A DNA stretch of 64,000 nucleotides, from contig CAWCFT010000004.1 of assembly GCA_963794945.1 (NCBI GenBank), positions 1-64,000 of the forward strand, given 5' to 3'. The translations under genes were made by a program, and so were the position numbers. Source of the stretch: Endomicrobiales bacterium. Lineage in GTDB: Bacteria; Elusimicrobiota; Endomicrobiia; Endomicrobiales; CAWCFT01. Positions 27,941 through 43,032 of this stretch are shown piece after piece (positions within the stretch are counted from its first letter, which is position 1; every line of letters starts with the position of its first letter). The notes beneath the pieces were generated by a model, which did not search any database, was not told the DNA's origin, and saw nothing but the letters and a program-made list of their open reading frames with translations.

Positions 27941-30900
27941 TTATCTTGCTACGACTATTGTTCCGTTAACGACTTTACCTTCACCGGTAAGCTGATATAT
28001 ATAAACTCCGACGGGAACTGTCACGCCGTTTTGGTCTTTGCCGTCCCAGTAAGTATATCCACCTTGAATATCTGAAGTTGCATTCGTGTCGTCAAGCTTC
28101 CTTACCAAAGCGCCCCTTAGGTCGAATATCTTTATTGAAATACTGGATGCTTTCGGATTAGAATACCTAAACAGCGCGCGGTCATTCTGCCCGTCGTTAT
28201 TGGGAGTGATGATCCTGGGCATTACGCTGTAGAAGGTGAACGCCGTGGCCCTGGAAGCTATACGCAGCTGGTACGTGCCCGCGAACATTGCCTTGGCGTT
28301 AATAACCTTGTTGACCGTGTCAACAGTGCTCGCGATCGTCAGCCATTCAACGCCGTTATAATAGAACATAGACACATCGTTTTCAATATCTGCCTCCGGC
28401 ATTGCTCTTAATGCAGGCGCCTGCATGCCGCTGCCTATTCCTGTCATATAAGAGATCGACAACCCGCTCAGGTCAGAAGATGAGCTTGACGCATCATATG
28501 ACGTGAAATTACTCAGGCCGATTTTCACAAGATTAAAGGAAGACGTGGTTTCAACGACCTTATAAGGCTCCCATTCAATTGATTTTATTATCGGGCCCTT
28601 TTCATCGCTTATATCTCTTGTAAGCGTAATTATCATATTATCCTGCACTTTGCTCGCCTTTAATGTGAGGACTGAGCCTTCAGAACAAAGTATATGCACG
28701 TACTGGTCAAGGCTGAGAATATTTGAATCGCTGTAATTTCCCGAAGCGTCTATCGCGCGGACCTTGTAGTAGTATTGTGCGTTAGGCATCGGGATAGTAT
28801 CCGTATACTGCGTCGAAATGGAATTATTGACCGCTACCAGCTGCCAGTTCCCGAATATAGCGGTTGACCTGTAAATTTCATAGCTGTAAAGCTCCCTTAT
28901 TGAAGGCGCACTTGGATTTACAAACTTCGTACGGTCCGCGTTATAGTGCACAGGTGACCAGGAGATATTCGCTGTTGAGGCTGATATCCTGGCCAGGTTC
29001 AATCCAAGAGGGGCCATAGGCGGAATATTGTCGGTCCACGGAATGTAAGTGAAGCCGCATATCTCCGAAGAACGCGAATATACGCCGTATCCCGTGTAAG
29101 CGAACAGCATGACATAGTAAGTCGTTTCAGGAACAAGCTGGTTAGCCGTTAAAGAGTATGTTGTGTTCGGCGAGGCCGTCTTGTCAACCCACGCTGTCCC
29201 GTCTGTGGCGCTTGTCGGATACCTGTCTGTACGGTAAACAACTCTTGTGCCCAAAACGTTCGATTCCGGCGGTGTCGTCCATTGCAGGTACACGTTGCAG
29301 CCAACCGTGGGGTCAGTGCTTGCGCCAACAAGCATTGTAAGAACTTGGGGCGCCGAAGGCGTGACAAGAGCGCCGGAGATGAAGGCAAAGGTCACCACAG
29401 GAGATGTAGAAATGTTGCCCGCTGAGTCATAGCTGAACATAGAATAATAATATGTGGTAAATGCTGCGAGATTATTCTGCGTATACGCCTGCGGTTGAGA
29501 ATTAGTTCCTGCAACTGTGGCAAGATAAGCCTGAGAGGAACTAACCTGTGTATAGGTGCTGAAATATATGTTGACTCCAGCGTAATCAGAGTTCCTGTAA
29601 TACGGCACCGCGGGCGGGGTTGTCCATGCCAGGTTAATGTTATATTTGGTTATTGAGCCGGAGTTATCAACCATCGCAAGCGCCGTAACGTTGTTAACAG
29701 GATCCGGAGCAATGAGGTCCTGACTTACATAAACCTGAGTGCTCGTGCCTGCCGAGTAGTATGTTTCACCTGGGTTGAAAGCATAAACCGTATAATAATA
29801 GGTCGTGCGGGGTATAAGCTGAATATGCTGGTAGAGTGCCACCTGGCCTGAAGTTTCGGGTTGAAGGTCAATAAACTGCGCGCTAGCCGGCGTTGAAGGA
29901 GTTGCAGCGGTTGAGTAGCAGATCCTAACGCCTCCGAGATTATTCTCGCCTGTTGGGTTAGTCCATTTCAAGGACACATAAGAACCTGTGCTGATGTTGG
30001 CTGAAGCGTATGATACCGCGCTGAGCCCTGTTACCGGCTGGATCAGGCTGAACGGCTGCGCGGAAGCGTATTGAGGAAGTAATGACCAGTGGGTCGGCCA
30101 CTCATTCCTGATGAACGTCTCAAAATAATAAGTCGTTGGCAGAATAAGCCCTGTGATACTTACGGCCTGATAGTCGTTGGTCTGAATATTGGAAGTCGAT
30201 ATATATAATCTGGTTGAAGAATCCCAGTTATTTGCTGAATTCGGGTTATTAACTGATCCTGTCGGCTGAACGGTTGAATACTGTACGCAGTATTGTCCGG
30301 GGTAATATATCTTGTCCGGCACCATGTTATTGGACTGGTCAAAGAACAGCGGTGTTGTCCAGCTGAGCGTAACAGCGCCTATTTGGGCGGTCGTCCTGGC
30401 ATAAAGGCTTGTAATTTTCGTAGGGGTCCAGGGCTGAGTAGCAGCGTATGTTTGAGCCTGATTTGTAATGCTCTGTAATCCTTGGTCATAAGCGGCAGTG
30501 TTGAAGTACCTGTCGCGGGCTCTTACTCCAAAATAGTAGTAAGCCGCGGGTATAAGGCCTGAAATACTTACAGTTTCGGTGTTTCCCGGTGTTGCCTGGG
30601 CAAGCCATCCCAGCATCTGTGGCGTACCGGCCTGCAAGGCTGTCAACGTGTTCGGACTGTTCCACCATGCGTCAGCATTCGCAAAGCCGCTGGCTGGAGA
30701 TGTAGCGTATTTTATAACGTAAGAGTAAACAGGGCTTCCATCGGGCGCCATAGGAGCGCTCCAGGAAAGCACTACTCCTCCCGCTTTCTCAGGCACTGAG
30801 AAATCAGGAACAGCGTTGATGGACGTTATAGCGGTAGGATTGCCCGAATAAGGAGGGCAAACCTTTACACTTATAGCGACTGTGTTAGGCGAAGCCATAA

Positions 30901-30991
30901 GCTCACGGACAGGGATCCCCTGTCCCACGATCAATAGGCTTAGTCCTAATCTTACTATGGTTAATGGTTTAAGCCATTTCCATTTTTTCAT
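27941..30991 (-). CDS. Secreted multi-FN3 protein with gliding-motility-associated (T9SS type B-like) C-terminal domain
   Basis: Repeated LSW..P / L.P.TTYYY FN3 motifs; C-terminus PRIITPNNDGQND..WDGKDQNG..GVYIYQL..NGTIVVAR. Confidence 0.85.
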   Translation of the reverse strand: MKKWKWLKPLTIVRLGLSLLIVGQGIPVRELMASPNTVAISVKVCPPYSGNPTAITSINAVPDFSVPEKAGGVVLSWSAPMAPDGSPVYSYVIKYATSPASGFANADAWWNSPNTLTALQAGTPQMLGWLAQATPGNTETVSISGLIPAAYYYFGVRARDRYFNTAAYDQGLQSITNQAQTYAATQPWTPTKITSLYARTTAQIGAVTLSWTTPLFFDQSNNMVPDKIYYPGQYCVQYSTVQPTGSVNNPNSANNWDSSTRLYISTSNIQTNDYQAVSITGLILPTTYYFETFIRNEWPTHWSLLPQYASAQPFSLIQPVTGLSAVSYASANISTGSYVSLKWTNPTGENNLGGVRICYSTAATPSTPASAQFIDLQPETSGQVALYQHIQLIPRTTYYYTVYAFNPGETYYSAGTSTQVYVSQDLIAPDPVNNVTALAMVDNSGSITKYNINLAWTTPPAVPYYRNSDYAGVNIYFSTYTQVSSSQAYLATVAGTNSQPQAYTQNNLAAFTTYYYSMFSYDSAGNISTSPVVTFAFISGALVTPSAPQVLTMLVGASTDPTVGCNVYLQWTTPPESNVLGTRVVYRTDRYPTSATDGTAWVDKTASPNTTYSLTANQLVPETTYYVMLFAYTGYGVYSRSSEICGFTYIPWTDNIPPMAPLGLNLARISASTANISWSPVHYNADRTKFVNPSAPSIRELYSYEIYRSTAIFGNWQLVAVNNSISTQYTDTIPMPNAQYYYKVRAIDASGNYSDSNILSLDQYVHILCSEGSVLTLKASKVQDNMIITLTRDISDEKGPIIKSIEWEPYKVVETTSSFNLVKIGLSNFTSYDASSSSSDLSGLSISYMTGIGSGMQAPALRAMPEADIENDVSMFYYNGVEWLTIASTVDTVNKVINAKAMFAGTYQLRIASRATAFTFYSVMPRIITPNNDGQNDRALFRYSNPKASSISIKIFDLRGALVRKLDDTNATSDIQGGYTYWDGKDQNGVTVPVGVYIYQLTGEGKVVNGTIVVAR

Positions 30992-31009: not shown

Positions 31010-31690
31010 TCAAACTTTAACGTGTGCTTCTTTGCCGTTACCTGTTACTGTGCTGTTCTGCGCTGTAACCACCAGTGTTAGGGTCCTGGGATTCGTGTTT
31101 GTTACCGCGAGAGGCGTAAGCATCTTTATCCAGAGCGTCCTGTCGGAGGAATAGTTGCCGCCTGCTCCGTTACTGGCGCCATTTAGAGCAACTGGCACTA
31201 TCCTGGATTCTACGTTTTGATAACCTTGAGCGTTATAAGCTCCCCAGCCGAAAGCGTTGCCGGGTGCATAATATTTGGCATTCGTACTGAACGTGTCCCT
31301 GATAATATTGAAACTGTCATTACCCGCGGTAGGAGCCGTGGTTTGGAACACGCCGTATATCGCAACCTGGTTAAGCCCGGGTGTATTGGCGAGTGTCCAT
31401 CCGCTGGTGTTCAATGAAGTTGAGTCTATGTTCAATTGCCAGCTGCATATCTGTCCCAGTGAATCGTTCCTTAACGTCACTCCGGCTGGCGCGTACGCCG
31501 TTGTACCTGCCGTTACATTGCCAAGGCCGAAATATGTAGTCGCACCTGTCAGCGATACGCTAATATTCGTGACACATGTAAATTCTATTAACGCGTTCGC
31601 AGAACCCTGTGCGTAGACAGGCTTTAAAAGGCTTGAGGCTGTAATTAACAACGCCGCAAACATAACCAAATTCAGCAATTTTCTAAACAT
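31010..31690 (-). CDS. Secreted pilin-like subunit (shared LxxxLxTPLA..TxTxxAQ domain)
   Basis: GGAGG-ATG at 31690; signal peptide MFRKLL..VYA; C-terminal LWIKMLTPLAVTNTNPRTLTLVVTAQ. The ORF also has two upstream in-frame ATGs. Confidence 0.7.
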   Translation of the reverse strand: MFRKLLNLVMFAALLITASSLLKPVYAQGSANALIEFTCVTNISVSLTGATTYFGLGNVTAGTTAYAPAGVTLRNDSLGQICSWQLNIDSTSLNTSGWTLANTPGLNQVAIYGVFQTTAPTAGNDSFNIIRDTFSTNAKYYAPGNAFGWGAYNAQGYQNVESRIVPVALNGASNGAGGNYSSDRTLWIKMLTPLAVTNTNPRTLTLVVTAQNSTVTGNGKEAHVKV

Positions 31691-31901
31691 GGCGCCGCCT
31701 CCTTTTAGAATTTTTGGGCTTTTGCCCGTTTCAGTTTTCACGCGAGGATCCTTCGTTTTTTCTTCCATGACACTCTCCTTTTGGCTGCGCTCGGTTTTCG
31801 AACCGGGCCACTCTGCTATTGGGAACCTTGGTTCCCATGCCGAATCACTGCTTTTCCTAGACTTCCCGTCTTTCTCAATCAACATAACACGCTCCTCCTT
31901 T

Positions 31902-32811
31902 TTAGTTTAAATATAATCTGATGAACTTTGCCGCTTCGATGGTTCCTGACTTGATAAGGATCTTTACCGCGTAGAACAGTTTCTCGGCCTCCTTAGCCTT
32001 TAGATTCGCTTTCATCTCTACGTTCATAATGCCGTCTTTTTTTAATGTGAATTTGCTTTTCGAAATCTCAATGTCCCTTATATCGCCTTTAACATACCCA
32101 CGCGGGATAGATATGCCGTTCGGCTGGGGGTCGACCGCTTCGATGGATATCTTTACGTTCTCCATTGAAGGGTTGATGAGCTTGAGCGGCACATCCTGTG
32201 TTATCACCGCTTTTGTGTCATTCGACGAAACGAGAACCATGAACTTCTCCGGCGTAATTATTACTCCCTGCGATTCGCGCGCCTTATTACGGTTAAGCTC
32301 TTTAAGCTCTGCCGCGGTCGGAGGCTTTGGCGCTATGCTGAAAAGTATCCTTCCTTTTAACGCCAGCGCGAAAGCCATACCCGCGGCCTTCATTTTGTTT
32401 GGGCGGAACTGAGGTTACAAGAACGTAAGCCTGATATTTCTCCCCAAGGTATTTCTCGTCATTTGGAACGCTTATAGTGACATCGGCAGTAGCTGTTTCA
32501 TCCGGCAAAAGCGACACATTTTTCTTTGAGACCGTTATCCAGGAAACGTCAGGTATTGGTTCATATCCCGCCCTGAGTTCCTCATTGCTTGGCGCAACTG
32601 ATTCATATTTCAGCTCAATAGGAGCGTCTCCCGAATAACTTACCCACATAGGGTAGTTGACGGCTTCGGTCAGGTTATAAACCCCTCCTATTTTGAGGTT
32701 GTCAATGTGCACCTCAGCGAAATTCGTTGAAAGCGTAGAGCCGAACGCTTCAACACCGGCCAAAACTGACATTAAAACCAACCCGCAAAACCATCTTCTG
32801 ATCTGGGACAT
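31902..32811 (-). CDS. Secreted two-Ig-domain chaperone-like protein, paralog of 35797..36741 (frameshift at ~32395)
   Basis: AAGGAG-ATG at 32811 (MSQIRRWF, signal peptide); IDNLKIGGVYNLT, GYEPIPDVSWI and PNDEKYLGEKYQ match the paralog; ORF 31902..32393 continues the homology (FSIAP, LKLINP). Confidence 0.7.
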
Positions 32812-32985
32812 TGTGCTCTCCTTTTTGCCCGCTATAATTTGAACATTTGAATAAGGCTTTAGGGGCCAACCGAAGTAATTCCTCCCCGCAGAGGTTTTGA
32901 CTTCCTTGTTGGCCCCAATAAAAGTTTGGCGGAGCAGGGTCTGTTTCTCCCCGCAGAGGCATGACTTCCGCTCCGCCGAAAATGG

Positions 32986-33145
32986 TTTGCCAAACCCGCT
33001 CTGTGCCATAGCGAAAAAACGAGGTTTTGAGCGAAACGAAGGAATCTGAGGCGCGGTGTAGTTTAAACAAACTACATAAGCCGAGGATTCCGATGTTGAA
33101 GCCAAAACATCGTTTTTGCAGTAGGAACAGGGCGGGATTGGCAAA
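32986..33145. repeat. ~160-bp long imperfect palindrome (MITE-like) inside the hairpin array
   Basis: TTTGCCAAACCCGCTCTGT...ACAGGGCGGGATTGGCAAA ends with nested arms (AAAAACGA/TCGTTTTT, GGAATC/GATTCC, TGTAGTTT/AAACTACA). Confidence 0.75.
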
Positions 33146-33819
33146 CGAAGGACAAAAGAGGACTGTTCTCCCCGCAGAGAATAGACACCGTCTTTTGTCC
33201 CGAAAATAGTAAGGAGCCGGCCGAAGTAATTCCTCCCCGCAGAGGTTTTGACTTCCTGGCCGGCTCCAAAAGTTGTGGGCAAAACTCCAAAGTATTTCCT
33301 CCCCGCAGAGGTTTTGACTTCCGTGTTGGCCCCGTTAAATACAGTTGAAAAGTTCAATAGTTCAATGTTCAAAGTTTTAACTACCCCACCCATGGAATCC
33401 TTAAATCCTTGAACTATTAAACTTTGAACCTTTGAACCAGATGTAAAGAAGTGGCGGAGCAGGGTCTGTTTCTCCCCGCAGAGGCATGACTTCCGCTCCG
33501 CCGAAAAAGTTGGGACAAAAGAGGACTGTTCTCCCCGCAGAGAATAGACACCGTCTTTTGTCCCGAAAATAGTAAGGGGCCAACCGAAGTAATTCCTCCC
33601 CGCAGAGGTTTCGACTTCCTTGTTGGCCCCAATAAAAGTTTGGCGGAGCAGGGTCTGTTTCTCCCCGCAGAGGCATGACTTCCGCTCCGCCGAAAAAGTT
33701 GGGACAAAAGAGGACTGTTCTCCCCGCAGAGAATAGACACCGTCTTTTGTCCCGAAAATAGTAAGGAGCCGGCCGAAGTAATTCCTCCCCGCAGAGGTTT
33801 TGACTTCCTTGCCGGCTCC

Positions 33820-33855
33820 AAAAGAAAAAGCCTCGATCTGAGAAGAGATCGAAGC
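33820..33855 (-). terminator. Intrinsic terminator between the duplicated pilin-like genes and the hairpin array
   Basis: Minus strand GCTTCGATCT-cttctc-AGATCGAGGC followed by TTTTTCTTTT. Confidence 0.65.
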
Positions 33856-34145
33856 TGTATAAATATGTGTAGAAGCCTTAAGGGATAGACCCTGGGCTTT
33901 GAAATATTCTATTGCGCGGGGACGTCTTAGTGTGTCAAGAGCTTCATAAGACGATCTCGCAACGGCGCGGGAGCCGGGAAAACCCGGCAAGCCATTACGG
34001 TCGTACACGGAAGTCTACCTCTGCGGGGAGATATTTTTCCTATTCTTTTTTACTGGTCCACCCACCCTCACCGTTTTCAGGAGGTTTCACTACTAAACGA
34101 TGAGGTAAGGTTGAACAGCAAAACTGCTTTGGTTTTCAATTTATG

Positions 34146-34814
34146 CTACTTTGCAAGCACCGTCAAACCAATTGTCTGCGAAACGTTCGTCGATACAGCA
34201 AGAGGCGTATTTAATACAAGGTAAAGATAATAGCTTGTGTTCGGCATACCTTTGCCTTCAGGTGCGTAAGCAGTGCCGCCTGTTCCTGGATGGTAAAACG
34301 TGGTTGTACCCCACCAGTTGGTCGGAGGAATGGTTGGAAACACGTTATTGTCGGCTCCACCGCCGCCTGCGGCATTGGTAATTGCAGTAGCTGCTGATGG
34401 CATTGTTGTGCAAAAAGCGCCGCCGAGCGCGTACTTGTCAGCCTGGCCGGTAAGCGTCCAGCTGGTGTACTGTTGCTCAGTGTTACCGGTTTGAGTTGAA
34501 ACATAAACAGCGAAGGTCTCGACAGCTGCAAAGCTGGTGTTACTGTTGTTAAGAACGAATATCGGCGTGCTAAATAGGATACTCGTACCGGTAAGCGCGT
34601 TCAGGGTACTGAAAGCGACCGTATACTGGGGGTTAGCAACGGCGTCAGTACTGATCGAGACCAATACCTGCCTGTTGCAGTTAAACACTACGTTGAACTG
34701 CCCGTAGTTCGCCGCCTGCGCAACACTGCAAACCCCGCCTATTGATACCAGTAGCGTACCTAATGCAATTTTATTCATAATTTTCCACCACTTGCAATTC
34801 TTCATATATACCAT
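34146..34814 (-). CDS. Secreted pilin-like subunit, copy 2 (start may be 34778)
   Basis: Signal peptide ending AQA; mature sequence almost identical to 34828..35475; ends YLVLNTPLAVSTNVSQTIGLTVLAK. Confidence 0.8.
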   Translation of the reverse strand: MVYMKNCKWWKIMNKIALGTLLVSIGGVCSVAQAANYGQFNVVFNCNRQVLVSISTDAVANPQYTVAFSTLNALTGTSILFSTPIFVLNNSNTSFAAVETFAVYVSTQTGNTEQQYTSWTLTGQADKYALGGAFCTTMPSAATAITNAAGGGGADNNVFPTIPPTNWWGTTTFYHPGTGGTAYAPEGKGMPNTSYYLYLVLNTPLAVSTNVSQTIGLTVLAK

Positions 34815-34827
34815 TTATCGCTAGATA

Positions 34828-35475
34828 TTACTGTGCAAGCACCGTTAAACCAATTGTCTGCGAAGCATTCGTCGATACGGCAAGCGGCGTATTTAAGACA
34901 AGGTACAGATAATAGCTTGTGTTTGGCATACCTTTGCCTTCAGGTGCGTAAGCAACTCCACCGGTGCCTGGATGGTAATACGTGGCGGTACCCCACCAGT
35001 TGGTCGGAGGAATGGTTGGAAACACGTTATTGTCGGCTCCACCGCCGCCTGCGGCATTGGTAATTGCAGTAGCTGCTGATGGCATTGTTGTGCAAAAAGC
35101 GCCGCCGAGCGCGTACTTGTCAGCCTGGCCGGTAAGCGTCCAGCTGGTGTACTGTTGCTCAGTGTTACCGGTTTGAGTTGAAACATAAACAGCGAAGGTC
35201 TCGACAGCTGCAAAGCTGGTATTACTGTTGTTAAGAACGAATATCGGCGTGCTAAATAGGATACTCGTACCGGTAAGCGCGTTCAGGGTACTGAAAGCGA
35301 CCGTATACTGGGGGTTAGCAACGGCGTCAGTACTGATCGAGACCGATACCTGCCTGTTGCAGTTAAACACTACGTTGAACTGCCCGTAGTTCGCCGCCTG
35401 CGCAGCGCTAAAAACGCCTGCGAGCATTACAACGAACAAAAACAAAGACAAAATGCCCATCACTTTTTTAAACAT
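34828..35475 (-). CDS. Secreted pilin-like subunit, copy 1 (candidate major subunit)
   Basis: AAGGAGG RBS; signal peptide ending AQA; alternating N-terminal strand GQFNVVFNC; ends YLVLNTPLAVSTNASQTIGLTVLAQ. Confidence 0.82.
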   Translation of the reverse strand: MFKKVMGILSLFLFVVMLAGVFSAAQAANYGQFNVVFNCNRQVSVSISTDAVANPQYTVAFSTLNALTGTSILFSTPIFVLNNSNTSFAAVETFAVYVSTQTGNTEQQYTSWTLTGQADKYALGGAFCTTMPSAATAITNAAGGGGADNNVFPTIPPTNWWGTATYYHPGTGGVAYAPEGKGMPNTSYYLYLVLNTPLAVSTNASQTIGLTVLAQ

Positions 35476-35584: not shown

Positions 35585-35613
35585 ACTATAGCACCGCTTA
35601 ACGAATTTGTCAA
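35585..35613 (-). promoter_or_regulatory. Near-consensus sigma70 promoter for the pilin-like genes
   Basis: Minus strand TTGACA-17 nt-TATAGT with extended -10 TG, ~110 nt upstream of ATG 35475. Confidence 0.75.
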
Positions 35614-38553: not shown

Positions 38554-41500
38554 TCACGGATAACTAGTCGTAGCGGCCCTTAATTCCCTTAAATGAATGC
38601 CCCTTATAAGCGAGCCCGAGGTCATAGGCACGGGGTTCGTGAAAACAGGGGTTGACCCCGTGACATTATAATAAGGGGATGCCACCGCGTCCCGCAGTTG
38701 GTTGAGATGCACCCCCCTTATGAGGCTGCCAGCGCCCAGCGTTGACCAGCTTTGATCCCACGGATAAGTTCCGCTTCCGCGCAATGTCCTGACATTATTT
38801 ATGGCTTTTTGAAGGTCCAGAAAATGCGCCGCTCTTATTGGAGTTGACCCGTCCGTAATAGGGTCGGTCATGCCTACAGTCATTGTGCTCAGCATTACGG
38901 CGATGGTGTTGGACCAGGGCGGCGACTGCAGGCCCTGCGAATCCTTAATAAGCGCCCTCACATACCACGTCGTGCCCAGAGGAAGCCCCGCTCCTGTGGG
39001 GTATAATGTGTGCATTATCGAGTTAGTGCTGTAACACGGCAGTGTGACAAAACTACTGCTAAACGATGGGGTGGTAGACCAGTAATCTGTGGTAAGAGGC
39101 GTAAAACTGTTGTTGGCGGATATCTGAATTCTGGCCGCGCTTATCTGGTATGCGTCTGTATCGGTAAAAACTATCCATGGATGCGGATTATACGTAAATC
39201 CAAGGCCGGTGCCCGAAACCGGCGAAGTTATTGTAACGGCGGACGGCTCCAGCGCTTCATTAGCTCCTATATCCCAGGCAATACCTTGCGGCCTCGCATT
39301 GCCTAAAATATCGTAATTGAACGGTATCACCGGATCTGTCGCCAGGCTTGTTCCGTAGTCTCTGGCGCCGTTGTCCGTTGCGGTAATAAGATAATTGTTG
39401 GATCCCGAGTTTACGAATGTAAAAGTCTGGTTGGCCCGGTTTCCGCTCCCGCCGTAGCTGGTCGCTGTGCCGTCGGCTGACGCGCAGTAATTAACAGCGT
39501 AGCCGACACCCGTATTAAGAGAAAAATCCCTATAGCCGCTGACCCCCAGGCAGTTAGTTACTGTCGCTGTCTGTACGGATGCTGACCTGAAGCCGCGCCC
39601 GTTAGGGCATATACCTGTGCAATTGTAAGCGTATGTCGTTACGCCAGTGCCCCCGTTGGAATAAAAAGCGGCGACTGTATTAGAATAACTTGAGTTGTTA
39701 ATGCCTATGCAGTTCCACCACTCTATCGTAAAGGGGTTGGCGGTTATGCTCCAGCAATCAAACGTAAAGTAATTATCAGTATCACCAGTACCCAAATACC
39801 AGCCGAAGCAATCTGAGAACTTGACCAGACCGGTTGTTGACTGGCCAGTTACAAAATATGTGCGGCTGTTACTAGTCGGTTCATATATTGAAAGCCCGTC
39901 AACCCAAACGTAGTTGTCCTGGATTATAAGTTCCCCTTGTATCCTATACCCGTTGCCCCAAGTCCCGTTGTGCCTCTGCGACATCCCTACCTCCGCGCTT
40001 GATACAGGAGTGTATATCTTTACATAGTTGCTCGAACTGGTTGTCCAACCTGTCTCAGTTACGGACACGTTGTCCACCCCGTCCGCGTAACAAGGCACCA
40101 TCATTATATAATTCGACGACACCAGGTTCTGGCTTGCCAGAGGTACCTGTCCGCTGACCGCGCCGCTGATATTTGAATTCACGGTCGAGTTTCCTTCCCA
40201 GTTTCCAAGTGAATTGTAACAGCGGTAGACGCTGGCGCTTGTGCCGGCAGAAGCTGACTGCGGCGTTCCGCCGTTTGAACTCTGAACCGTGAAAGTCGTT
40301 GCATTTGCGCGCCCGCAAATAAAGGCAATATATGTACTGCCATAAACAATGGCGTCCCCGACGCCCACATTATTCGGCATATTCCCGCTGAACGTGGCGG
40401 TGGTCCCGGCTATAGTCACTGTGTAAGAATTAGTATTGAGATTGGTCGCGGTCGTCCCAACTGAACGGTACAGGCCGGTGATTGGAGGTTCCGCCGTCTC
40501 ATAAGCTCCTATATCCCAGGCAGGACCGATTGGCCTCGTATTGCCGCAAATATCGGTATTGAACGGTATAACCGGGTCAGCCGAGAGGTTTTCGCCATAG
40601 TCTCTGGCGCCGTTATCCGTTGACGCGATAAGATAATTATAATTGGGGTTTCCCGGGCTTACGAATGTAAAAGTCTGGCCGCTCCGATTTCCCGTCCCGC
40701 CGTAACTGGTCGCTGTGCCGTCGGCGGACGCGCAATAATTAACAGTATAGCCGGCACCCGTATTAAGAGAGAAATCCCCTACCGCTTTGCCCCAGGCAGT
40801 TAGTCAGTGTTGCTTGATGCACCGCTGCTGAGGCGAACGCGTACCCTGTGGGACATATCCCTGTGCAATTGTAAGCATACACAGTTACATTATTAGAGCT
40901 ACCTGTATAGTCGCCGTTGAAATAAAAAGCTGCAGGCGTTCCAGCTTCAGTTGAGTTATTAAGGCCTATGCAATTCCAGTATTCTATCGTAACGGTGCCG
41001 CTATAATTATAATTGTCAAACGTTCTAAGCCCGCCACTGCTCTGATTCCAGGCGAAGCAATTTGATATCTGGATCAGCCCCGGGCCCGGCACCGGGTTAC
41101 TGCTTGAAGTATCGCCGCAAAAAAATGTACGGTAATAATTCGGATAATTATATACTGAAATCCCGTCAATTTTGAAGTAGTTATCGTAGATAATAAAAGA
41201 CCCCTGTATCCTGTACCCATTGCCCCAAGTCCCGTTGTGCCTCTGTGATACCCCTACCTCCGCGCTGGATATAGGAGTGTATATTTTTATATAGTTGCTC
41301 AGCCCGGTTTTCCAACCCGACTCATTTAAAGTTCCATCTACCCCGTCCGCGTAACAGGGCACCATCATTATTACATTTGACGTCACCAGGTTAGAGCTCG
41401 GCAGAACAACGAAATTACTGCTGATACCCGCGCCGGTGATACCGGTATTTACAGTTGTGTTATTGCTCCAGTTCTGGAGCGAAGTGTAACAGCGGTAGAC

Positions 41501-43032
41501 ACTGGCGGCTGCCCGGAAGCCAACGGCGGTGGCCCGCCGGTTGAATTCTGAACCGTGAAATGCTGTGAATCTGTGCGCCCGCAAATAAAGGCGATGCTGG
41601 AGCCGTAAACAATGGCGTCTCCTACTCCCACGTTATTCGGCATGGCCCCGCTGAATGTGGCGTTGGTCCCGGATATGGTCAGCGTGTTCCCGGTATTGAG
41701 ATTGGCCGTATTACCGGGCCCCACTGAGCGGTACAGGGCTGTAACCGGGGCGAGCACTGGCGCCTCATACGCTCCTATATCCCAGGCAGGGCCCTGGGGC
41801 CTTGTATTGCCGCAAATATCGTAACTGAACGGTATCACCGGGTCCGCCGCAAGGCTTTCACCGTGGTCTCTGGCGCCCATGTCCGTCCCCGTAATAAGAT
41901 AATTGTTGGCTGCCGAGTTTACAAATGTAAAAGTCTGGTTGCTCAGGTTTCCGCTCCCCCCATAGCCGGTCGCTGTGCCATCGGCAAACGCGCAATAATT
42001 AACATTGTTGTTCGATAAATTATGGAAATCCCCATAGCCGCTCTGCCCCAGGCAGTTCTTCAGTGTTGCTGAGAGTATGGATGCCTGCTTGAACGCGTAA
42101 CCTGTGGGGCATATCCCCGTGCAATTGTAACAATACGCCGTTACATTAGCGCCGCCGTTGAAATAAAAAGCAGCGGCTCCGGAAGCACTACAGGTGCTGA
42201 TGCCTATATCGTTCCACCACTCTATCGTAAAGGCGCTGGCCGTTATATTCCAATCATCAAACGGATATTGTTGATCACCATTAAGAGTATTCGTATTCCA
42301 GGCGAAACAATCTGAAATCTGGACCAGCCCGGTGGCTGTCTGGCCGCCTACAAAAATTGTGCGGTCATCACCCGACTGATATACGGAAAGCCCGTCAACC
42401 CAAACATAGTTGTCGCCGATATCAAGGTGCCCTGTTATCTGATACCCGCTGCCCCATGTCCCGTTATGCCGCTGTGACGCCCCTACCTCCGCGCTTGCCA
42501 CAGGAGTGTATATCTTTATATAGTAGCTCGCCGAGGTTGTCCAACCCAAATCGGTTGCGTTTCCGTCCATCCCGTCCGCATAACAGGGCACCATAAATAT
42601 TGCACTTAACGACGTCAGGTTCTGGCTCGACAGAGGAACCTGGCCGCTGACCGCGCCGCTGATATTGCTATTCACGCCTGAGTTTCCAAGACAGTTATTG
42701 AGCGAATTATAACAGCGGTAGACATTGGCGCTTACCGCGGAAGCTGCCTGCGGCGTTCCGCCGTTTGAACTCTGAACTGTGAAAGTTGTTGAATTTGTGC
42801 ACCCGCAAATAAAGGCGATATACGTACTGCCGTAAACAATGGCGTCACCAACGCCCACGTTATTTGGCATAGCCACGCTGAATGTGGCGGTGGTGCCGGA
42901 TATTGTCACCGTGCACGCGGAATTGAGATTAGTCGCAGTGGTCCCCACTGAACGGTACAGGCTTACCGCGCAAAAGGCCGTGCCGGCAAAAAGAACCATA
43001 AACAGTGATACAAGAACTATCCTATTTCTCAT
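38554..43032 (-). CDS. Large secreted adhesin-like protein (~1490 aa) with three homologous ~400-aa modules (frameshifts at ~41515 and ~40780)
   Basis: Each module runs LYRSVG..MPNNVGVGDAIVYG..SQRHNGTWG..RPxGxAWDIGAxE; C-terminal triple IRxxHxxxLxxA motif; ORFs 41449..43032, 40763..41584 and 38554..40419 are collinear pieces. Confidence 0.8.

Follow-up and report, generated by a model that had tools for sequence, protein, structure and literature searches.

The window analyzed here, i.e. positions 1 to 64,000 of contig CAWCFT010000004.1 (C4) in the Endomicrobiales bacterium assembly GCA_963794945.1, was found to harbor an operon in which a single segment of a pilin-like gene's 3' untranslated region (UTR), here called the anchor, is complementary to each of 11 hairpin units arrayed further down the same operon, ahead of a chaperone-like gene. 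The feature is real and conserved, and it is probably an RNA-RNA device, as judged from sequence. The order anchor, terminator and oppositely oriented units was common to all 20 scored loci with an anchor and an array, i.e. those of 18 genomes from ten families and of two metagenome contigs, with a total of 116 units. These families range from the same order as the present genome out to other classes.

The anchor and its array of units

The core CTCCCCGCAGAG occurs 11 times on the plus strand of the window (at 32882, 32947, 33168, 33233, 33299, 33472, 33531, 33596, 33661, 33720 and 33785), once on the minus strand at 34019 as an inverted copy, and once more at C4:399774. In total 13 copies were thus found in the 2.9 Mb genome, 12 of them at one locus, against an expectation of 0.22. 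All 11 units fold as hairpins of 50-56 nt (sense-strand z -2.2 to -5.8), the one at 33299 being the weakest. Both the 11 direct units with an identical core and the weaker unit had been pointed out in an earlier reading made from the letters of the window alone (hereafter the sequence-only reading). Its description of the outer stems as unrelated did not hold: the units comprise eight distinct sequences of about five types, multiplied as blocks of 134-186 nt were duplicated in tandem, and each unit has one arm that tracks the inverted copy's 3' flank. Owing to these tandem blocks the exact unit count could be affected by assembly, though the unit types are distinct. Linkers between units are mostly 9-13 nt long and U-rich. 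The elements are listed below in the order of the operon.

34051..34120, minus strand: hairpin P1, conserved, where the 3' UTR begins, with many G-U pairs on the sense strand (six loci, with one U-G pair in 6/6)
33997..34032, minus strand: anchor, i.e. a C-rich seed (loop CCCGCA, predicted unpaired) and its 3' flank, whose complement is present in the 5' arm and loop of each unit
33820..33856, minus strand: canonical intrinsic terminator, between anchor and array
33765..33819, minus strand: unit 1 (type D), directly after the U-tract of the terminator
33701..33753, minus strand: unit 2 (type C)
33642..33691, minus strand: unit 3 (type B)
33576..33630, minus strand: unit 4 (type A)
33512..33564, minus strand: unit 5 (type C)
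33453..33502, minus strand: unit 6 (type B)
33340..33438, no strand assigned: AT-rich imperfect palindrome, an insert in the array and not a unit, with partial copies elsewhere in the genome
33277..33332, minus strand: unit 7 (type E), the weakest hairpin, with the most favourable predicted anchor binding
33213..33267, minus strand: unit 8 (type D)
33150..33200, minus strand: unit 9 (type C)
32985..33146, no strand assigned: long palindrome of 162 nt, an insert in the array and not a unit, with one diverged copy at C4:372141
32928..32977, minus strand: unit 10 (type B)
32862..32916, minus strand: unit 11 (type A), without a U-tract; its end lies ~50 nt short of the start codon of the chaperone-like gene

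The inverted copy had been counted as a twelfth unit. It has no outer stem, and its sequence identifies it as the predicted pairing partner of the units rather than one of them. On the sense strand it lies within the pilin 3' UTR, downstream of P1 and 190 nt before the terminator, and its loop is predicted to be open in the terminated UTR. This one anchor of ~35 nt matches 11 units, with a complementarity of ~29 bp on the sense strand of the operon. The opposite anchor flank has no match to the units, similarity being limited to the seed and one flank. Pairing of the anchor flank was better than that of shuffled sequences in five out of six loci (at most 1/200 shuffles as good), G014 being the exception. 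Over 82 distinct units the anchor-unit duplex has a median of 29 pairs and is in most cases broken after a seed helix of 13-17 bp, while its longest helix has a median of 14.5 bp and does not exceed 19 bp in 77 of the 82. Predicted anchor binding beats the unit's own hairpin in all 11 units of the window, by -9 to -30 kcal/mol. That the anchor pairs with the units as RNA, on the sense strand, is on this evidence very probable.

Across all arrays the unit loops read, on the sense strand, C-UNCG-G in 82 out of 86 units, where N is G (42), A (27) or U (13), i.e. a stable tetraloop family; the variable base of the seed is exactly this N, and energy models choose other registers. The two palindromic inserts of the window are unrelated to the units. 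Small palindromic elements were also seen within or between units in other genomes (L002:1310-1385 in G006, L201:1400-1435 in G101 and L199:615-680 in G113), with the seed broken in two of these; arrays are hotspots for palindromic insertions. The copy at C4:399774 (L017) is a solo complete unit in sense orientation, ending 10 nt before a Shine-Dalgarno sequence between what we take to be dapB-like and hydrolase-like genes, and its predicted duplex with the anchor has an energy of -44 kcal/mol. It is one of four other sites in this genome with predicted anchor binding of -42 to -46 kcal/mol, against a background reaching -39; the remaining three are not unit-like hairpins.

Conservation, covariation and strand

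Loci were found by following the chaperone gene, by a scan for repeats with one inverted copy and by two looser patterns. Each array has from three to 11 units, all oriented opposite to a single anchor. A hairpin with a U-tract was picked between anchor and array in 15/15 loci, by a script that took the best candidate and with two weak picks, and a terminator hairpin was evident in four of the five loci added later. The same layout, with a variant seed, was recognized by eye in G131, while in G214, G151 and G098 units were seen and the anchor was absent from the stretch examined or the stretch was cut. The exact two-unit pattern matched three out of 401 genomes of the phylum. A loose two-seed pattern matched 89 of these genomes, its control also matched often, and it was used for leads only. 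The two-unit scan of metagenomes returned 12 stretches, three of which were true homologues on inspection (L153, L158 and L161, the last two being the same locus); the rest were one CRISPR array (L150) and different repeats. Only scattered single matches, among those listed (at least 119 stretches), resulted from a loose single-site pattern across the genome contigs, and an anchor covariance model run on 104 genomes gave the training loci and one weak match. Of two viral sequence scans, one had 0 matches and the other five unrelated coding repeats.

Chaperone homologues were identified in 99 of the 401 genomes. Outside the ten families most chaperone loci were without an array (the flanks were examined in part of the 99 genomes, and many ended at contig ends). 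The array is thus not obligatory for the chaperone locus, and many such loci lack it. Extra units occur at the next gene junction in eight genomes (G133, G109, G083, G075, G064, G085, G214 and G098), ahead of a gene that we take to be PorV-like. Downstream of another presumably PorV-like gene, at C4:76252 of G008 (L242), a sense-oriented hairpin with the exact seed has no anchor-matching arm. Two hairpins sharing the same 12-mer loop lie between unrelated genes of another organism (L157:3990-4110), with no anchor in the locus. The repeats of two CRISPR-like arrays (L150:4001-6200 and G355 C226:4735-5096) include the anchor seed, which is probably a coincidence.

In an alignment of 32 units across loci, changes on both sides were found at eight of 12 consensus pairs. 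The earlier proposal that selection acts on single-stranded structure together with sequence was supported. The loop, held in that proposal to be invariant, is constant within this genome's order and varies across the phylum, in step with the anchor: the seed is CCCGCA/UGCGGG in families f1, f7, f8 and f9, CCCGUA/UACGGG in f11-f14 and f16, and CCCGAA/UUCGGG in f19. The anchor flank CUUC has become CCCC in G172, where the units change to match, G133 being a wobble intermediate. In G109, G113 and G133 the anchor has lost its own small hairpin, which the sequence-only reading had taken for the cap, and retained complementarity to the units. In f19 the anchor is interrupted by an inserted hairpin, with unit pairing to either side of this insert. 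When one array per family was paired with every anchor, its own anchor ranked first in six of ten arrays, second in three and third in one (cognate mean -52 vs -40 kcal/mol). The functions considered in the sequence-only reading, i.e. a protein-binding array, a processed noncoding RNA or single-stranded DNA recombination sites, miss both the complementarity of every unit to the inverted copy and this covariation between families. The array may still give a processed or multivalent RNA, whose ligand would most likely be RNA, not protein.

Inverted homology alone could yield part of the covariation, and the strand was therefore tested separately. Transitions between anchor flank and unit arm were scored strand-neutrally in a fixed window. 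In nine held-out loci, found after the hypothesis had been formed, a G-U bias toward the sense duplex was present (41/98 vs 16/90 positions; p 0.0004; 0/200 shuffles), as it was in five further held-out loci (21/55 vs 4/51; p 0.0002; 1/200 shuffles). The sense duplex was stronger than the antisense one in 14/15 and 5/5 loci. The eight nt after a hairpin contain on average 4.4 U on the sense strand and 2.0 on the antisense strand (67 distinct hairpins; 12/14 loci), and where a long insert separates units the U-tract keeps to the 3' side of the hairpin (5.2, n=24, vs 3.5, n=21; p 0.002). Function had earlier been placed on the strand antisense to the operon. The U-rich tails, the G-U-rich upstream hairpin P1 and the anchor-unit G-U bias together indicate the sense strand, on which the units of this genome read UGCGGG. 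Wobbles within the hairpins, which had been said to favour the CCCGCA-containing strand, are unbiased in a strand-neutral count (G-T 20, A-C 27; 4 and 3 in this genome alone).

These data bear on two further explanations. The first is that of the sequence-only reading, a protein-binding hairpin of which anchor and units would both be copies, the array forming a CsrB-like sponge transcribed from the opposite strand. Some units do have inner stems extended by G-U pairs on the CCCGCA strand, and a TATAAT lies at 32834 on the plus strand, but that site was not called as a promoter, the tails and the G-U bias favour the other strand, and the anchor resembles the units in the seed and one flank only. 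Neither does the loss of the anchor hairpin in several loci, with complementarity kept, suit a hairpin-binding protein; CsrA was not detected in the genome, which is 86% complete, and the neighborhood lists of open reading frames (ORFs) showed no conserved RNA-binding protein. We regard this explanation as very unlikely.

The second would place the function in the DNA, as inversion or single-stranded recombination sites, as REP-like elements, or as neutral inverted repeats homogenized by gene conversion. Anchor and units do form inverted repeats (13-16 bp and a flank), other palindromes are inserted in the array, there is one solo copy, and the genome contains five matches to Y1 transposases. 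A G-U bias and strand-specific U-tracts are, on the other hand, unexpected for DNA sites. An invertible switch of the shufflon or fim type was rejected, the orientation being the same in 21/21 loci, with no recombinase seen by eye among the neighboring ORFs. From small fractions of three DNA runs short contigs resulted, with no joints. REP/RAYT elements (BIME) were likewise rejected: the sequence-only reading had named hundreds of dispersed copies tied to such a family as a finding that would refute its proposal, and the 13 exact copies, 12 of them at one locus, compare with the tens to hundreds of dispersed copies required, while the five Y1 matches (PF01797) lie on C1, C2, C8, C11 and C15 and the motif only on C4. 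DNA-level roles for anchor and units are unlikely, and we hold them to be the least probable of the explanations considered here. In G079, an ORF that we take to be Y1-transposase-like (L234:130-950) is flanked by short inverted repeats with more copies nearby, unrelated to the anchor motif.

A tentative mechanism and its alternatives

Given pairing, there is in our analysis close to an even chance that the units act as leaky terminators or pauses, each of them blocked when the anchor binds its emerging 5' arm. The outcome that we favour, tentatively and at somewhat less than even confidence, is anchor-gated read-through of these tandem weak terminators. It is favoured because its geometry equals that of small transcription activating RNAs (STARs), in which strand invasion prevents a terminator. 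Pairing would begin loop to loop at the exposed C-rich anchor loop and proceed down the 5' arm of the unit, opening the unit, whose 3' arm would act as an imperfect cage. With the anchor bound, the terminator-like hairpin would not form and transcription would run on into the chaperone and adhesin genes. The anchor would be supplied in trans by the abundant terminated pilin mRNA, and in read-through transcripts it could also hop in cis from unit to unit, each finished unit refolding and thereby releasing it. With three to 11 serial gates, expression of the assembly genes would depend steeply on how much subunit mRNA is present. In G008 and G133, and more weakly in G014 and G061, the stretch between terminator and array has promoter-like sites, which suggest that pairing can occur in trans. 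The extra units before the next gene in eight genomes fit checkpoints along the operon, but they fit docking sites as well.

A number of results weigh against anchor-gated read-through or against the evidence for the strand. In 11 out of 15 loci no promoter match was found between terminator and array, and gates behind a strong terminator look redundant there. Pairing in trans would have to be rapid, and the 86% complete genome yielded no Hfq. In co-transcriptional models the anchor shifted to the nascent unit and the older unit refolded in 13/13 cases, a result that follows largely from the set-up of the models. The G-U bias does not reach significance in the initial six loci, including this genome (21/61 vs 15/55; p 0.43), nor with one locus per family (36/97 vs 23/83; p 0.2; 22/200 shuffles); of the five further held-out loci, four come from one family and, being kin, are not independent, and an earlier, wider count that included the non-pairing flank was flat (64:59; 24/39 units). 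The unit tails are weak as terminators, with a score (formula of the TransTermHP type) of 3.2 compared with 5.2 for the main terminators and 2.2 for background; 31 of 62 units exceed 3.2 as against 11% of the background. U in these tails peaks at +6 to +9, not at +1 to +5, and the last units of the arrays score only 2.7 (n=9). Moreover, 19 of 86 units, including all of those in G014 and G077, had no stem under the tail-scoring rule and were dropped from it.

Such poor terminators would be less of a difficulty if the array were a multivalent scaffold or stabilizer, the three to 11 docks on a rare read-through mRNA for chaperone and adhesin holding several pilin mRNAs by their 3' UTRs, for co-localized translation and export or for shielding from nucleases. 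The evidence for anchor-unit pairing applies here equally, the copy number fits a one-to-many ratio across a leaky terminator, and a broken duplex of ~29 bp would suit stable binding better than cutting by RNase III. There is also the precedent of hly and prsA2, where the 3' UTR of a substrate mRNA stabilizes the mRNA of its chaperone (PMC8722363). Such a scaffold leaves the U-tracts tied to the 3' side of the hairpin unexplained, however, RNase J, the nuclease blocked in that pair, was not found in the 86% complete genome, and the solo unit sits in an unrelated operon. Overall this explanation is rather unlikely, even if the weak tails and the broken duplex bring it close behind anchor-gated read-through.

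Alternatively, read-through might yield an array of antisense RNAs in caged form, which RNase E/G or Y may separate at the U-rich linkers. These would remove or sequester the pilin 3' UTR and so set the ratio of subunit to tip, or would act as a sponge for a small C-rich RNA coming from this UTR. RNase III, RNase Y, RNase E/G and Rho are all encoded in the genome, the linkers have the short, U-rich character already described, a stable RNA of ~300 nt could be delimited by P1 and the terminator, and OppZ and CarZ are known cases of RNAs from a 3' UTR that pair within their own operon (PMC7398697). The duplexes are nonetheless nearly always interrupted, no clear set of other strong anchor targets emerged in this genome, and a pure sponge would need no extra units at a second gene junction. 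Such negative titration appears improbable.

With anchor-gated read-through still the favoured outcome, it seems fairly likely at a more general level that we are dealing with a natural, phylum-wide RNA device, in which the 3' UTR of an mRNA is the key to a series of self-caged hairpin locks further along its operon. The device would act either by serial antitermination, as a natural multi-input STAR with a key that possibly ratchets along the nascent RNA, or by loading many subunit mRNAs onto one assembly mRNA, and it would set the stoichiometry of pilus subunit to accessory proteins by RNA-RNA counting, without a protein regulator.

The host operon and known systems

All genes of the host operon lie on the minus strand, as follows.

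35585..35613, minus strand: sigma-70-type promoter of the pilin-like genes, near-consensus (11/12 consensus matches, extended TG)
34828..35475, minus strand: pilin-like subunit gene 1, with an N-terminal hydrophobic helix followed by a beta-sandwich resembling FimA/CS20/Csu pilins
34146..34814, minus strand: pilin-like subunit gene 2, a near-identical tandem duplicate of gene 1, whose 3' UTR holds the anchor
31902..32811, minus strand: chaperone-like gene, with two PapD-like immunoglobulin (Ig) domains in the intact orthologue and a frameshift near 32390 in the assembly
31010..31885, minus strand: minor pilin-like gene, alignable with the pilin-like family
27941..30991, minus strand: large fn3 protein with a CHU_C/FlgD-type C-terminal domain, likely an adhesin or cargo

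The operon is pilus-like by predicted fold, as had been proposed from the sequence, with a pilin-fold subunit and a two-Ig-domain chaperone. The subunit model is of moderate quality (predicted local distance difference test, pLDDT, 63); it matched FimA with an E of 3e-4 and other donor-strand pilins with Z 5.6-6.3, a middling score. The model of the chaperone orthologue (pLDDT 85) has two PapD-like domains, with matches to ASH domains, FimC, CsuC, CfaA and WxLIP. No Pfam usher or WxL match was obtained for the 16 proteins scanned in the window or for 17 pilin-like proteins, and the nearest named Atlas cluster was WxL, at 0.86. In the window the chaperone-like ORF is in two frames, as compared with a single ORF of ~304 aa in G006, G008, G014 and L158; the break near 32390 may be an assembly error or recent. 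A promoter site comparable to that of the window precedes the pilin-like gene of G014. The pilin-like pair is duplicated in L161 too, as it is at 34146-35475 of the window, and between genomes the subunit is strongly divergent (19-28% identity). An ORF ~1.4 kb upstream of the pilin-like gene in G006 (L162:13459-14769) presumably resembles a group II intron reverse transcriptase. Elsewhere in the window, three overlapping minus-strand ORFs at 38554-43032 (38554-40419, 40763-41584 and 41449-43032) share one repeated domain in different frames, which suggests one large secreted protein broken by frameshifts; Pfam gave no match for the two of them that were searched.

Turning to known systems, Rfam had no match in the window (16 weak matches were all far below the gathering threshold) and ARAGORN called 0 genes. 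The sequence-only reading had likewise seen no CRISPR, attC or tRNA pattern. In tracrRNA/CRISPR systems one RNA segment, the anti-repeat, is complementary to every CRISPR repeat, and the anchor resembles it in matching all units of an array. CRISPR with a tracrRNA was nevertheless rejected: the variable parts of the array are self-pairing arms that follow the anchor flank, and linkers of 9-13 nt, instead of unrelated foreign spacers, and the units recur by duplication. Cas1 was not found in the 86% complete genome, and no cas genes were seen by eye in the neighborhood ORF lists, other cas families not having been searched. Integron attC sites have conserved bases at the stem ends, a variable loop and one site per gene cassette, whereas the array has a conserved loop, a variable base and no genes between units, and attC was rejected as well. 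CsrB/RsmZ sponges carry many short constant-loop hairpins in one RNA, with GGA in the loops and an encoded CsrA/RsmA partner. The array shares the many short hairpins with a constant loop, but its partner appears to be RNA and its loop changes between lineages together with the anchor. In sense-strand folds the GGA of the units lies in the stem. Resemblances to ribozymes, riboswitches, ANTAR elements and G-quadruplexes were discarded, as Rfam lent them no support and the stretch rich in G is paired within P1.

No system with this architecture was found described in the literature covered, which left out most subscription journals and the supplements of bioRxiv papers and RNA-motif surveys. As for the host operon, WxL/DUF916 donor-strand pilus operons are limited to Bacillota in the abstract of a study on them, where an RNA element of this kind is not mentioned (bioRxiv 10.64898/2026.10.17.759780). 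The likeness to WxL and chaperone-usher pili concerns the host operon only, i.e. the FimA-like subunit fold and the two-Ig-domain chaperone, in the absence of a Pfam WxL match. OppZ and CarZ are RNase E products from an operon end that repress at one site (PMC7398697, a paper with Hfq among its keywords). Here, too, 3' UTR sequence would pair with the transcript of its own operon, but the anchor UTR lies mid-operon and would pair over ~29 bp at many downstream sites, in a genome where Hfq was not found.

The closest parallels are two. The 3' UTR of Listeria hly pairs with the prsA2 5' UTR and thereby couples the mRNA of a secreted protein to that of its chaperone (PMC8722363; PMC7821165). That interaction involves one site and two unlinked genes and blocks RNase J1, in contrast to one operon with many caged hairpins, a terminator in between and no RNase J found. 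Synthetic STARs and toehold switches rely on a terminator-like hairpin that precedes a gene and whose 5' arm and loop are invaded by antisense RNA, an invasion favoured by bulges in the stem (PMC9071393). The anchor is complementary to just these parts of the unit hairpins. Whereas the STARs described there are engineered, single-site and separately transcribed, the anchor is part of a natural mRNA 3' UTR in the same operon, with three to 11 tandem targets and weak tails.

By this analysis the anchor-array system would work like a STAR or like hly-prsA2, and it belongs to no family tested. To our knowledge, the bacterial interactions between mRNAs, or between a 3' UTR-derived small RNA and its target, use one site, and toehold and STAR devices have so far been built by engineers only. 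If the reading given here is true, a one-to-many strand-displacement design with compensatory changes across ten families would represent a new coupling of gene dosage within an operon, relevant to the production of many pilus subunits for each chaperone and adhesin. The different lineages would offer ready-made orthogonal anchor-array pairs, testable in vitro with short RNAs, and the system would be the natural counterpart of toehold and STAR devices.

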